Source of the DNA: Candidatus Methanomethylicia archaeon
GTDB taxonomy: Archaea > Thermoproteota > Methanomethylicia > Nezhaarchaeales > B40-G2
Reading direction: 5' to 3'
Assembly: GCA_029259155.1 (NCBI GenBank)
Contig: JAPDJI010000001.1
Span: 32,001 to 96,000 of the forward strand
Length of the DNA: 64,000 nucleotides
Part shown: positions 5,699 to 63,330 of the stretch, one piece after another
How the letters are laid out: each line of letters begins with the position of its first letter
How positions within the stretch are numbered: the stretch's first letter is position 1
Notes under the pieces: model-generated
Database searches by the model: none
What the model was told of the DNA's origin: nothing
The model's input: only the letters and a program-made list of their open reading frames with translations
Made by a program: the position numbers and the translations under genes

Positions 5699-6136
5699 AT
5701 GGGAATGAAGCTTAAGACTGTTTTCTTAGCGGCAGGGGTTTTCATAGCAGCCTTGGGGGTAGGTGCCTTATATTACGCTCTTGAGGTGTATCCATACCTT
5801 GTGGCTGGCTATGGAGGCTCTGAGCCCTTTACGTTGAGTACGGTTAACGGCTATACTTTCATACTCCCTGTTTGGACCGGGTCTAAGGTAAATGTTCAAG
5901 TCTACGCTAACAACACGGTTCAGGTGTGGGTCGAAGGTGAGTTGATGGGAGAGGGGAATCAGGTTTTCTTTGACCTAGAGCCTGAGAAGCAACATCTAAT
6001 TATGGTTACTTCCGAGGTTCCCGTCGAGGGGAGAATTTCCTTCAGACAGCAGCCTCCGGAGGTGCTCTTGCTGGTAGCAGGTTTTATGGTTGTATTAGGG
6101 GTGTCTATTTTCATTGCCTCCTTTAAGCTACGCTAG
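5699..6136 (+). CDS. Hypothetical membrane protein with N- and C-terminal TM helices
   Basis: 145-aa ORF with two hydrophobic segments flanking a beta-rich region. Confidence 0.7.
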   Translation: MGMKLKTVFLAAGVFIAALGVGALYYALEVYPYLVAGYGGSEPFTLSTVNGYTFILPVWTGSKVNVQVYANNTVQVWVEGELMGEGNQVFFDLEPEKQHLIMVTSEVPVEGRISFRQQPPEVLLLVAGFMVVLGVSIFIASFKLR

Positions 6137-6195
6137 CCTTCCTGTAGCCTCAGTTTTATAGCATACTCCTCCTATCCACTTTTAGGGGCTTGAAC

Positions 6196-6977
6196 TTGTA
6201 TAATCCATTAGAATATGCTGAAAGGCTGAAGCAACTTGTAGTTAGAGGTATGGCAAGGAAGTATTATAGAGTAGCTAGAGGCGGTAGATGGTACGGCGGT
6301 AAGTAGGCTTACGCCTACCCGCATTCGCTACCGCAGACTGTGTAGGCTGTCCTCTAAAATGCGTGTTCTGCTGGAGTAACGTGTCTCGAGACTCTCCTGA
6401 AAGCGTGGGGCGTTTCTATACGCCATCACAGGTGTTTAAGGCTCTCGATGCTATTGCAAGTAAACGAGGCTACACTCAGCTTAGGGTGAGTGGTAATGAA
6501 CCTACTCTCGGCAGGGACCACCTTCTAAGCCTCTTAGACCTCGTTGAGGAGGCAGGGCGCTACACCTTCATTTTGGAAACTAACGGCATCCTAATAGGCC
6601 ATGACTCATCTTATGCACGCGATCTAGCCAAGTACAGGTGTATTCATGTTAGGGTGAGCTTGAAAGGAGCTTCACGTGAAGAGTTTACCAGGCTTACTGG
6701 AGCTATACCTGAAGCCTTTGACCTTCAATTAAAGGCACTTGAAAACCTCCTCAAGGAAGGTGTACCGTGTCATCCAGCTGTCATGTTATCCTTTAGCTCT
6801 AAGGACTCGCTCAAAGCGCTAACATCAAAGTTAAGGTCCATCGACCCCACCCTCGTCGAGGAACTTGAAGAAGAATACGTGTTCATGTACCCTCACGTAG
6901 CTGAGAGGCTTAAGAAGGCTGGAATACAACCTAAGATAGCCTACAGCCCCAACAGGATACCTGAAGAGCTTATATGA
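6196..6977 (+). CDS. Radical SAM protein, spliced gene: exon 1 6196-6301, exon 2 6325-6977 (252 aa)
   Basis: Exon 1 reads MYNPLEYAERLKQLVVRGMARKYYRVARGGRWYGG. Removing 6302-6324 gives ...WYGGIATADCVGCPLKCVFCWS (CxxxCxxC), then RVSGNEPT, LETNG and VRVSLKG. Start could also be TTG 6190. Confidence 0.85.
6302..6324 (+). other. 23-nt bulge-helix-bulge (BHB) intron in an mRNA
   Basis: Central 4-bp helix GCGG(6296-6299)/CCGC(6319-6322). 3-nt bulges UA|A (6300-6302) and AU|U (6323-6325). Inner stem GUAGGC/GCCUAC with UUAC loop; outer exon-exon stem GGUA-CG/CG-c-UACC. Canonical cleavage restores the frame. Confidence 0.85.
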
Positions 6978-7061
6978 ACAAAATACCCGCTAAGAGGTTA
7001 GCGGAAAGGTTTACGGTTTGCATCAAAGCTACGTAAGCTTCGCGTGGCAGCTTGCCTATAT

Positions 7062-7775
7062 TCATCCTTCTAGACCCATTAACCTAACCGCATTTCCCCC
7101 AAGCACTCTAGCCTTGTCCTCCTCGCTTAGTTGAAGAGAAAGCAGCTTCTCAACCTCATGCTTCATGTAGCCAAAAGGTATGTCAGAGCCGAACAATAAG
7201 CGATGGGAGCCAAGTTCCTCTAAAAACCTCTTTACGGTGCTGCTCGGAGCCAGCGAGGTGTCGAAGTAGACATTATCTTCATGCTTAAACTTCTCTAGGA
7301 AAGCTAGCGGAGAACCTCCGAGCATACCTAAATGAGGTATCACGAGCGTCACCTCTGGGAATAAGTTCACGAACCTAACCGTAAACTCAAGCTCCTCCTC
7401 AAAGATGACGGGTAAGCGTAACTTGGCAACTGTCCTTGCGAATCCCTCAAGCCTAGGGTCAGAGAGCACGCTGTAATTAGATTTTGTATCCGATATCCCT
7501 CTGACCCAATGCCACTTAACGCCTCGGAAACGTGGATTGCTAGGTGGCGTTAAGTCGTCTGGGGCGTAGTAAAACGGTATGAAACTACTATGGTGTTCGG
7601 CTTGCCCCAATACCCACTCAACTATGGATGGATCTGACACGGCTGTGGAAGGGAATGGAAACACTACGGCCCTATCTACCCCAGCCTCCGACATTTGCCT
7701 TAAAATCTCCTCTGAGGTTATAGAGATCCCGAGCACCAGCGACGGCCCCAAATGTGTATGGAAGTCTATAATCAC
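7062..7775 (-). CDS. Amidohydrolase-family metallo-hydrolase (amidohydro_2)
   Basis: IIDFHTHLG, GVKWH, IPHLG, NVYFDTS, LLFGSDIPF, VLGGNA. Confidence 0.9.
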   Translation of the reverse strand: MIIDFHTHLGPSLVLGISITSEEILRQMSEAGVDRAVVFPFPSTAVSDPSIVEWVLGQAEHHSSFIPFYYAPDDLTPPSNPRFRGVKWHWVRGISDTKSNYSVLSDPRLEGFARTVAKLRLPVIFEEELEFTVRFVNLFPEVTLVIPHLGMLGGSPLAFLEKFKHEDNVYFDTSLAPSSTVKRFLEELGSHRLLFGSDIPFGYMKHEVEKLLSLQLSEEDKARVLGGNAVRLMGLEG

Positions 7776-61732: not shown

Positions 61733-62221
61733 GTGGGGGGCTCGCAGAGTATATTCTTTAAGCTGCGGGTCTTTGAGCCAAGAGACCTAGATAGTGTCAT
61801 ATATATCAACAGGACTTGTCTACCTGAAAACTACCCACCTGACTTCTTCCTAATGCACCATCGAGAACACCCTGAGGCTTTCCTCGTGGCTGAACTTGAT
61901 GGTGAGGTTATAGGCTACAGCATGAGCCGCGTAGAACATGGTTTCTCCAATTTTAGAAGAGTTTTCGCTAAGAAGGGGCACGTCATCTCCATCGCTGTCC
62001 TGCCGCGCGCTAGGAGGATGGGGATAGCCACTTCGCTTATGACAAGGACCTTGGAGGCACTACGTAAATATGGAGCCTCAGAAGTATACTTGGAGGTTAG
62101 GGTGACCAACGAACCAGCCATAAACCTATACAGGAAGATGAACTTTGAAATAGTGAGGAGGCTCGTAGGCTACTACGTTGATGGCGAGGACGCCTGGTTG
62201 ATGGCTAGGCAGCTATGGTGA
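61733..62221 (+). CDS. N-terminal protein acetyltransferase (Ard1/RimI-like GNAT)
   Basis: IN..CLPENY, GY.M.RVE.G, KGHVISIAV...RR.GIA, LEVRV.N..AI.LY, YY.DGEDA.LM. Confidence 0.92.
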   Translation: MGGSQSIFFKLRVFEPRDLDSVIYINRTCLPENYPPDFFLMHHREHPEAFLVAELDGEVIGYSMSRVEHGFSNFRRVFAKKGHVISIAVLPRARRMGIATSLMTRTLEALRKYGASEVYLEVRVTNEPAINLYRKMNFEIVRRLVGYYVDGEDAWLMARQLW

Positions 62222-63330
62222 GGGCCAGCTCCTTGACCGAGTGTAAGCTATGTGGTGTTAAAGACCCCCTAATATCTTCCCAGCTGGGTCTTTGTCCTAG
62301 CTGCGCGAGGAATGGAGGGGCTGAGGCGGTTAAGATAGCACAAGAAGCTCATGCAAAGGTTAGGGCTCGCCTACACTTACCTGAAAGAATACCTAAAGAC
62401 CCTAAGGGTGTGAAGTGTAGTCTATGTAGTAATGAATGCTCCATACCTGAAGGTGGAACCGGTTACTGTGGCCTTAGAAGAAACGTTGAGGGCAAGCTTG
62501 AACACCTAGCAGGCATCGATGTAGGCCTTCTCTACGCTTATTATGACCCCTTGCCCACTAATTGCTGCGCAGCTTGGTTTTGTCCAGGCTCAAAGGAGAG
62601 CGGCTACAACTTAGCTGTATTCTTTTATGGCTGCAACTTTGACTGCCTTTTTTGCCAGAACGCTTCTCATAAGAACATTATCGAGGGCTTCACGGTCACT
62701 CCTAGGGAGCTAGCTGAAAGAGCTGGCTTCAGCGTAAGGTGTATATGCTACTTTGGCGGCTCACCTGAGCCTCAGCTACCCTTCGCCTTGAAGGCTAGCC
62801 AGGAAGCTTATCATAAGGCTATCAAGGAAGAGAGGTCCTTGAAAATATGCTGGGAGTGGAATGGTTGCGGCAATAAAGAGCTCGTTAAGAAAGCAGCTGA
62901 GCTTTCCTTGATCACTGGAGGCAACATTAAATTCGACCTTAAGGCGCGTAGCCCCACGCTCAGCATAGCGCTAAGCGGAGTAGATAACTCTAGAGCTTAC
63001 GAGAACTTTGCTATGATAGCCAAAGAGTTCTATGATAAACGCCCTCACGACCCTGTTTTGACCGCTACCACTCTCCTGGTTCCTGGTTATGTGGATGAAG
63101 ACGAGGTAGATTCTATTGCTAGCTTCATAGCTGACCTCGATGCCACGATCCCTTATAGCCTATTAATTTTCTATGGAGCATTTGCTATGAAAGACCTACC
63201 CGTGACCCCTGTAAGCCAGGTAGTCTCATGTTATCGCGCCGCTAAGAGGCACTTAGAGAATGTCCATATAGGGAACCTACACCTCATCGGCCTTAGCTGT
63301 ATGGCTGAGTTTAAGGCGAGGCTGCTTTAA
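62215..63330 (+). CDS. Radical SAM protein (PFL-activase-like) with N-terminal Zn ribbons
   Basis: CKLCG...CPSC, CSLCSNEC..GYCGLR, DPLPTNC, GCNFDCLFCQN, FGGSPEP, CWEWNG, TLLVPGY. Confidence 0.88.
   Translation: MVRASSLTECKLCGVKDPLISSQLGLCPSCARNGGAEAVKIAQEAHAKVRARLHLPERIPKDPKGVKCSLCSNECSIPEGGTGYCGLRRNVEGKLEHLAGIDVGLLYAYYDPLPTNCCAAWFCPGSKESGYNLAVFFYGCNFDCLFCQNASHKNIIEGFTVTPRELAERAGFSVRCICYFGGSPEPQLPFALKASQEAYHKAIKEERSLKICWEWNGCGNKELVKKAAELSLITGGNIKFDLKARSPTLSIALSGVDNSRAYENFAMIAKEFYDKRPHDPVLTATTLLVPGYVDEDEVDSIASFIADLDATIPYSLLIFYGAFAMKDLPVTPVSQVVSCYRAAKRHLENVHIGNLHLIGLSCMAEFKARLL

Follow-up and report, generated by a model that had tools for sequence, protein, structure and literature searches.

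How can a complete radical S-adenosylmethionine (SAM) enzyme be produced from a gene whose reading frame breaks off after 36 codons? This question is raised by positions 6196 to 6977 of the archaeal DNA stretch analyzed here, which has a total length of 64,000 nucleotides (nt) and is referred to as the window. The upstream open reading frame (ORF) covers positions 6190 to 6306 of the plus strand, encodes 38 amino acids (aa) if translation starts at TTG 6190 or 36 aa if it starts at TTG 6196, and terminates with the residues ...RWYGGK before the TAG codon at 6304-6306. The downstream frame is open from position 6303 to the stop codon at 6975-6977, and its N-terminal residues are VGLRLPAF-ATADCVGCPLKCVFCW. 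A previous sequence-only reading of the window had described this break, including the TAG codon after 36 aa, and had interpreted it as a bulge-helix-bulge (BHB) intron; all of its statements on the sequence were found to hold. As detailed below, the insert is very probably a spliced BHB intron, and positions 6196 to 6977 would then represent a single gene for an archaeal radical SAM protein of roughly 252 aa, to which no substrate is assigned.

The assignment of the downstream frame (exon 2) to the radical SAM superfamily, which had been proposed from the letters alone, was confirmed by a match to Radical_SAM (PF04055) with 74.2 bits at a cut-off of 29.5 and by the presence of a Cx3Cx2C cluster motif, which reads C-PLK-C-VF-C. 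The NCBIfam equivalog level was not reached for this protein (best score 50.3 bits versus a cut-off of 400). As read from the sequence, the exon-2 frame contains no ATG, GTG, or TTG codon between position 6303 and GTG 6363, and therefore a product initiated within exon 2 of the unspliced message lacks two of the three cysteines of the cluster motif. On this reading of the start and stop codons, no possible product would retain all three cluster cysteines without splicing. The truncation by gene callers that had been anticipated is found in the database, where the protein stored for this gene (P0002, 198 aa) begins downstream of the Fe-S cluster motif.

Scripted removal of positions 6302 to 6324 joins A6301 to T6325 and C6326, which creates an Ile codon (ATC), as claimed before, and leaves an open frame of 252 aa counted from TTG 6196 (about 252 to 254 aa) with the junction WYGG-I-ATADC. 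If the 23-nt deletion is moved by one base in either direction, Phe or Asn is encoded instead of the conserved Ile, as read from the sequence. Cuts after the second base of each bulge thus give, in silico, a product predicted to be functional, with the Ile codon restored and a 252-aa frame matching the homologs. A homolog search with exon 2 returned 3198 proteins at E ≤ 0.001 among 5972 candidates, and the homologs listed are mostly 245 to 264 aa long, approximately 37 aa more than exon 2. Contiguity of the homologs across the junction, which had been suggested as a check, was observed in 37 of 38 inspected N-termini (P0003-P0040), where YGG-I-(A/S)T is unbroken; the exception, P0022, is itself the miscalled intron-bearing gene of a relative (G004, see below). 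The nearest homologs, with source labels Nezhaarchaeota or Nezhaarchaeales, are identical through RKYYRVARGGRWYGG-I-ATADCVGCPLKCVFCWSN, and the N-terminus MYNPLEYAERL of homolog P0004 agrees with exon 1 translated from TTG 6196.

The minimum free energy (MFE) fold of positions 6285 to 6337 is identical to the motif drawn in the sequence-only reading. It features two 3-nt bulges on opposite strands around a central helix of 4 bp, an inner helix of 6 bp, and an outer helix composed of 2 bp, a bulged C, and a further 4 bp, i.e., the complete hBHBh' arrangement (coordinates in Table 1). Archaeal BHB motifs are cut between bulge residues 2 and 3, according to excerpts from PMC2738675, and the predicted cuts lie at these positions. 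The register was assessed by shuffling only the 23 intron letters with the exons held fixed: a paired 4-bp helix together with a correctly placed inner helix arose in just 7 of 200,000 shuffled sequences if the inner helix had to comprise 6 bp or more, and in 315 of 200,000 if 3 bp or more sufficed. Identity of the insert as a repeated element was rejected, as the genome contains a single copy of the 23-nt sequence even when up to 4 mismatches are allowed. A search of Rfam gave no family match at the intron, the sole match within positions 5900 to 7100 lying elsewhere and far below the threshold.

The presence of the 23 nt was examined in independently sequenced DNA. Contigs from all four other DNA runs, representing four studies, span positions 6100 to 7000 (one of them to 6984) with 5 to 11 substitutions and no gaps; therefore, the insert is present in the DNA of independently sampled strains and, as the sequence-only reading had required, is not an assembly artifact. 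Neither a substitution nor an indel was found within the intron. The strains carry substitutions at 12 positions; read in the spliced frames, 8 of them are synonymous and 4 change a residue, a pattern that places both exons, as judged from these substitutions, under purifying selection in the spliced frames. In the same runs, other short contigs match positions 6255 to 6296 and then continue directly with the codons for GG-I-ATADCVGC; these contigs come from a different organism, whose ortholog has no intron.

All 41 related genomes searched contain a match to exon 2. Among 30 loci fetched from relatives, a motif search found the gene in 22, of which 20 were contiguous and 2 interrupted, namely the window's own gene and that of G004, a member of the same order but of another family. 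In G004, an insert of 26 nt splits this Ile codon at the identical base; its helix is GUGG/CCGC, its bulges are AAA and UAU, and its inner stem has 5 bp and an unrelated sequence. A metagenome contig (L037) carries a 30-nt insert at the same codon phase, whose helix reads GUGG/CUAC, whose bulges read AAA and AAU, and whose inner stem comprises 9 bp; the protein of this contig shares 135 of 250 residues (54%) with that of the window. The insert of a second metagenome contig (L046) is identical to the G004 form, and the 26-nt version is thus seen both in a relative's genome (L006/L032) and in an independent metagenome contig. The G004 and L037 inserts can each form a BHB whose cuts would yield GG-I-AT, and the spliced frames are open in all three lineages (252, 252, and 255 aa).

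When the three same-site motifs were aligned, pairing was found in 92.3% of the pair cells, and both partners are exchanged in 4 of the 13 pairs, which bears out the proposal that compensatory stem changes should be found in relatives. Specifically, the central helix is paired to 100% in the three lineages, with one pair varying between C-G, U-G, and U-A, and 83% of the cells of the outer helix are paired. This agreement was matched by 2 of 500 shuffles, and sliding the partners by 1 to 3 columns reduced pairing to 20 to 59%, with at most one both-side change. The structure is thus kept by compensatory change, on three sequences.

Further carriers of the site were sought with a degenerate pattern consisting of WYGG, 12 to 42 nt, and I-A-T-x-D with fixed codons, by which longer or diverged cases are missed. 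Reversed-pattern controls gave no matches in the class and phylum genome scans. In metagenome contigs, the pattern matched 14 stretches, comprising 2 real introns (L037 and L046), 1 accidental homolog (L042), and 11 unrelated stretches; in genome contigs, it matched 16 stretches with no real intron, 2 of them being accidental intronless homologs (L059 and L061) and 14 unrelated. Independently of the pattern, four clusters of 196-aa proteins in the L037 lineage (P0122 and P0126-P0128) were noticed to begin just past the cluster motif; their near relatives P0123-P0125 are full length and contiguous. These short proteins hint at more same-site intron carriers in this Bathyarchaeia-like lineage. 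A paralog of this radical SAM family is present as two adjacent pieces in different frames in some relatives (G008:C1:497011-497166 with 497162-497647; G017:C3:78717-78857 with 78379-78672; G014:C14:11630-11701). These split paralogs represent possible further interruptions at another site.

A genome-wide search for frame breaks linked to BHB motifs had been recommended, and the existence of more such introns in this lineage had been considered possible. The scan performed here combined a strict BHB motif (3-nt bulges, no more than 2 G-U pairs) with joined open frames of at least 20 open codons per side and by design misses relaxed introns. Its first pass gave 8728 hits, mostly neighboring genes such as rpoB/rpoA'. 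Besides the radical SAM target, it recovered three further cases, located in cbf5 and in the genes for aIF5B (infB) and ribosomal protein uS5 (Table 1). The cbf5 intron occupies the published crenarchaeal position as given in the part of PMC2738675 consulted. When the exon ends of uS5 and aIF5B are placed on solved structures, they fall on neighboring residues: exon 1 of uS5 ends at residue 69 and exon 2 begins at residue 70 of 9fhl_F, and exon 1 of aIF5B extends to residue 49 (aligned to residue 48, plus one residue) and exon 2 begins at residue 50 of 5fg3_A.

The frames of these three genes were surveyed in 25 genomes, 15 of the order and 10 of other orders. Within the order, all genomes but one (14 of 15) have the uS5 frame broken at one shared residue, and in the 10 others this frame is always contiguous. 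For aIF5B, a short frame was found in every genome of the order (15 of 15) and in 2 of the 10 others; for cbf5, it was found in all 14 genomes of the order with a match and in 4 of the 10 others. Among the loci examined, a strict BHB motif lies at the site in each of the 7 interrupted ones of uS5, each of the 6 of aIF5B, and 5 of the 6 of cbf5, the exception being G002. The relatives' introns of these genes share a conserved central helix, and their inner stems vary with pairing preserved by compensation. Since uS5 and aIF5B are essential and interrupted throughout the order, they cannot all be pseudogenes, and these frames and motifs imply that BHB splicing of mRNA is functional in this lineage. 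Among the indirect arguments for the radical SAM intron, the order-wide interruption of essential genes carries the most weight. A separate observation concerns cbf5 in genomes of other families (G017, G020, and G024), where long matches of 325 to 331 aa contain one in-frame stop; these stops might represent in-frame introns or recoding.

The host genome (1.55 Mb in 47 contigs, 49% G+C) encodes both components expected for splicing; the organism itself is found in samples from hydrothermal vents and sediments (runs X1-X6). The EndA domain PF01974 was detected at two places (105.7 and 72.7 bits at a cut-off of 27) and the ligase RtcB (PF01139) at one place (593 bits). Going by gene number, the two EndA genes probably form a heterotetramer of the crenarchaeal type. 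Excerpts of the literature associate heterotetrameric EndA with relaxed motifs (PMC5829648) and heterotetrameric or hetero-oligomeric EndA with cbf5 splicing (PMC2738675). The motif and the known cbf5 case suggest that the radical SAM gene depends on EndA and the ligase. Using ARAGORN, introns were called in 13 of 41 tRNA genes. A strict BHB motif coincides with the ARAGORN boundaries in 2 of the 12 tRNA introns examined, BHB and non-canonical positions lying outside ARAGORN's model; this comparison left out one tRNA with a 2523-nt intron call. The latter, a tRNA-Ser at G000:C23:10617-13234, is either an artifact of the program or a very large insertion.

In the explanation we favor, a 23-nt archaeal BHB intron interrupts the radical SAM gene after the first base of a conserved Ile codon. 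In the pre-mRNA, the exon codons for W-Y-G-G and I-A-T would form base pairs among themselves and with the intron's 3' end. The splicing endonuclease, probably the two-gene EndA heterotetramer, would cut after the second base of each bulge, and RtcB would ligate the exons, yielding a message that encodes WYGG-I-ATADC and placing exon 1 upstream of the Fe-S cluster motif. Cleavage and ligation, like the subunit make-up of EndA and any regulatory role of the intron, are parts of this scheme that we infer. The BHB interpretation put forward in the sequence-only reading is supported by codon restoration, presence in independent DNA, same-site recurrence with compensation, selection on the exons, the EndA and RtcB genes, and the further predicted introns in cbf5, aIF5B, and uS5.

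Several observations weigh against this explanation. The folding energy of positions 6285 to 6337 is ordinary (-20 kcal/mol, z = -1.84, with 9 of 200 shuffled sequences folding as well), and the outer helix beside bulge 2 comprises just 2 bp before the bulged C. Position 6329 is a C in contigs of all four other runs, a synonymous exchange that weakens one outer pair; in these strains, as in G004, an outer pair is replaced by an A-C mismatch. The MFE folds of G004 and L037 favor a neighboring register (a 5-bp helix with a bulge AUC, or a 3x4 internal loop), the canonical register coming close to this optimum in energy without reaching it; as modeled, both are relaxed BHB motifs, and the outer helix is weaker there and in the other strains. 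The covariation sample comprises only three sequences. The intron is patchily distributed: a scan for the site pattern detected 2 genomes among the 62 of the class and no others among 401 sampled across the phylum, where these two were matched again, and three relatives of the same family (G001-G003) are without the insert. Finally, none of the 14 sequencing runs listed as holding the stretch is on record as RNA.

The absence of the insert from the three closest relatives (G001-G003), the modest z-score, and the record of runs would also fit a dead gene, inactivated by a 23-bp insertion that is never removed and whose BHB-like fold is a coincidence. We consider this quite improbable: in three lineages, neither exon is shortened or closed by a stop, synonymous exchanges make up 8 of the 12 strain substitutions with no indels in four independent assemblies, the exact register is rarely reached by shuffling, three different inserts at one codon phase all retain the motif, and the same motif interrupts essential genes across the order. 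It is very improbable that EndA cuts the motif mainly for control or decay, with only a small or condition-dependent fraction being ligated into translatable message. A precedent is offered by Haloferax HVO_1309, where removal of a BHB intron in the 5' untranslated region (UTR) appeared important for expression according to excerpts from PMC7714728; the exact restoration of a conserved codon and of the frame nevertheless implies selection on the ligated product.

The gap might also be bridged by the ribosome through programmed frameshifting or bypassing. The two frames overlap at position 6303, where a shift could in principle join them, and cbf5 introns were once confused with translational frameshifting by other researchers, as stated in an excerpt of PMC2738675. 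The chance of this is nevertheless slight: a programmed frameshift site was rejected because no slippery heptamer was read at positions 6297 to 6303 and because a shift would replace the conserved Ile by 8 foreign residues, seen in none of the 37 contiguous homologs; bypassing, for its part, leaves the BHB geometry and its conservation unexplained. An assembly or sequencing artifact, which the 47-contig metagenome-type source assembly might suggest, is scarcely conceivable, given the gapless contigs of all four other DNA runs and the 26-nt version in a relative's genome and an independent metagenome contig.

Table 1. Features of the radical SAM locus (window positions) and predicted introns in three further genes of the host genome (genome and locus coordinates)
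Feature	Position	Strand	Details
TATA-box-like element	6155..6162	+	TTTATAGC; in 53-nt gap, ~30-40 nt before start codon; read by eye
Exon 1	6196..6301	+	TTG start (6196 or 6190) to first base of split Ile codon; MYNPLEYAERL...RWYGG
Outer helix h, 5' strand	6290..6295	+	GGUACG (codons of W-Y-G); pairs with 6326-6332; MFE fold
Central helix H, 5' strand	6296..6299	+	GCGG (exonic Gly codons), 4 bp; pairs with 6319-6322
Bulge 1	6300..6302	+	UAA; predicted 5' cut between 6301 and 6302
Predicted intron	6302..6324	+	23 nt; one copy in genome
Inner hairpin h'	6303..6318	+	6-bp stem 6303-6308/6313-6318, loop UUAC 6309-6312; MFE fold
Central helix H, 3' strand	6319..6322	+	CCGC (intronic); MFE fold
Bulge 2	6323..6325	+	AUU; predicted 3' cut between 6324 and 6325
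Exon 2	6325..6977	+	last two Ile-codon bases, radical SAM core with C-PLK-C-VF-C, stop 6975-6977
Outer helix h, 3' strand	6326..6332	+	CG-c-UACC (codons of I-A-T), one bulged C; MFE fold
Predicted cbf5 intron	G000:C2:28850-28872 (locus L070 1351-1373)	-	23 nt; between first and second base of catalytic Asp codon; GGTL-D-PKVTG
Predicted aIF5B (infB) intron	G000:C2:13183-13211 (locus L068 2184-2212)	-	29 nt; inside GTPase domain; REVGAM / TQHIGAS
Predicted uS5 intron	G000:C13:32002-32029 (locus L069 1003-1030)	+	28 nt; VQKQTD / AGELSRFK

The radical SAM gene is preceded by a gap of 53 nt, the stop codon of the upstream gene being located at 6134-6136. The candidate promoter element in this gap has a sequence which we take to resemble the archaeal TATA consensus, and its position suggests a short-leader or leaderless transcript.

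Other candidates from the strict scan that had passed filtering were rejected on inspection. Those at moaB/moaA, porD/porA, a ychF-like gene, and polB represent neighboring genes or contain a start codon inside the 'intron', that of L14e has a TTG start, the carB ORF is continuous, and window positions 62586 to 62611 lie in a single ORF (62215-63330). In a family 4 glycosyltransferase gene (G000:C3:2057-2088, plus strand; locus L071 858-889), the break is A/T-rich, and the two frames leave a gap of approximately 10 profile positions; this resembles a frameshift, caused by pseudogene formation or a homopolymer error, and not an intron. A 23-nt strict BHB with an outer helix of 3 bp and an inner helix of 6 bp was also observed at G000:C3:23669-23691 (plus strand; locus L072 670-692), directly upstream of an ORF with a nucleotidyltransferase domain that has its own ATG shortly after; it could be a chance occurrence, a leader intron, or a genuine coding intron.

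The closest known system is cbf5, whose pre-mRNA intron in Crenarchaeota is said to have been described by Watanabe in 2002. Like the radical SAM intron, it is a short BHB intron in a coding frame that splits a codon after the first base and is cut between bulge residues 2 and 3, and both share the link to hetero-oligomeric EndA, patchy gain and loss among relatives, and miscalls by gene finders. They differ in that the host gene encodes a pseudouridine synthase in one case and a radical SAM enzyme in the other, and in that cbf5 splicing was experimentally shown in some species whereas the radical SAM intron is known here from sequence. The radical SAM intron does not lie in the cbf5 catalytic Asp codon, in which the genome's own cbf5 is interrupted. 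Excerpts from Yokobori 2009 (PMC2738675) locate the cbf5 intron in Desulfurococcales and Sulfolobales, outside of which the radical SAM lineage is found, and state that, as of 2009, no protein gene except cbf5 had confirmed splicing, others being predicted. In 2020, cbf5 was still named as the sole additional BHB intron on record, to which a case from the 5' UTR of a Haloferax gene was then added, as far as excerpts from PMC7714728 show. Our literature search, outside of which most subscription journals lie, found no report of a BHB intron in radical SAM, uS5, or aIF5B genes; within the literature searched, cbf5 is the only coding-region BHB intron in print.

As predicted for the radical SAM intron, the Haloferax volcanii HVO_1309 intron belongs to a messenger, and not to tRNA or rRNA, and serves the tRNA splicing endonuclease as a substrate, but it lies in an untranslated leader, rebuilds no codon or frame, and was confirmed in vivo and in vitro (PMC7714728, in excerpt). 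Archaeal tRNA and rRNA introns share the motif and the predicted enzymes, EndA and RtcB, with the case described here; in contrast, the substrate is here a messenger, whose frame is preserved only if excision is accurate to the single base. A eukaryotic parallel is the unconventional splicing of HAC1/XBP1 mRNA, which is IRE1-dependent according to an excerpt of PMC13149111. In both systems, a protein endonuclease recognizes stem-loops, the intron is very short, the ligase is of the tRNA type, and the frame changes; unlike in the archaeal case, the endonuclease and the motif are unrelated to those of BHB splicing, and XBP1 splicing is a stress switch. The XBP1 intron has 26 nt and shifts the frame, and its exons are ligated by RtcB.

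The radical SAM proteins of the three carrier lineages are 51 to 67% identical and harbor a different intron each at the identical base of the same Ile codon, and close relatives of each lineage are without an intron, which may point to repeated gain at this site, where the exon codons already provide half of the motif. Gain may have occurred, for example, by a reversed cut-and-join reaction followed by reverse transcription. A broader view, which we regard as possible but rather doubtful, would see BHB mini-introns as mobile elements that recurrently insert into protein genes of this order; in combination with the order-wide introns in uS5, aIF5B, and cbf5, the production of the translation machinery and of one Fe-S enzyme would then depend on tRNA-splicing capacity and perhaps be tuned by it.

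With the predicted radical SAM intron, a metabolic enzyme gene is added to the archaeal mRNA BHB introns. At least four protein genes of the spliced type (radical SAM, cbf5, aIF5B, and uS5) are predicted in one genome; the lineage appears to be unusually rich in mRNA BHB introns, and BHB splicing of mRNA seems to be far more frequent in this archaeal group than the one textbook example would suggest. If confirmed, the finding would mean that gene callers systematically truncate such proteins, the called protein lacking the Fe-S cluster motif in the present case, and that the origin and spread of archaeal protein-gene introns become testable on many natural, covarying examples. Splicing of mRNA by the tRNA machinery would then be a regular part of gene expression across an archaeal order.

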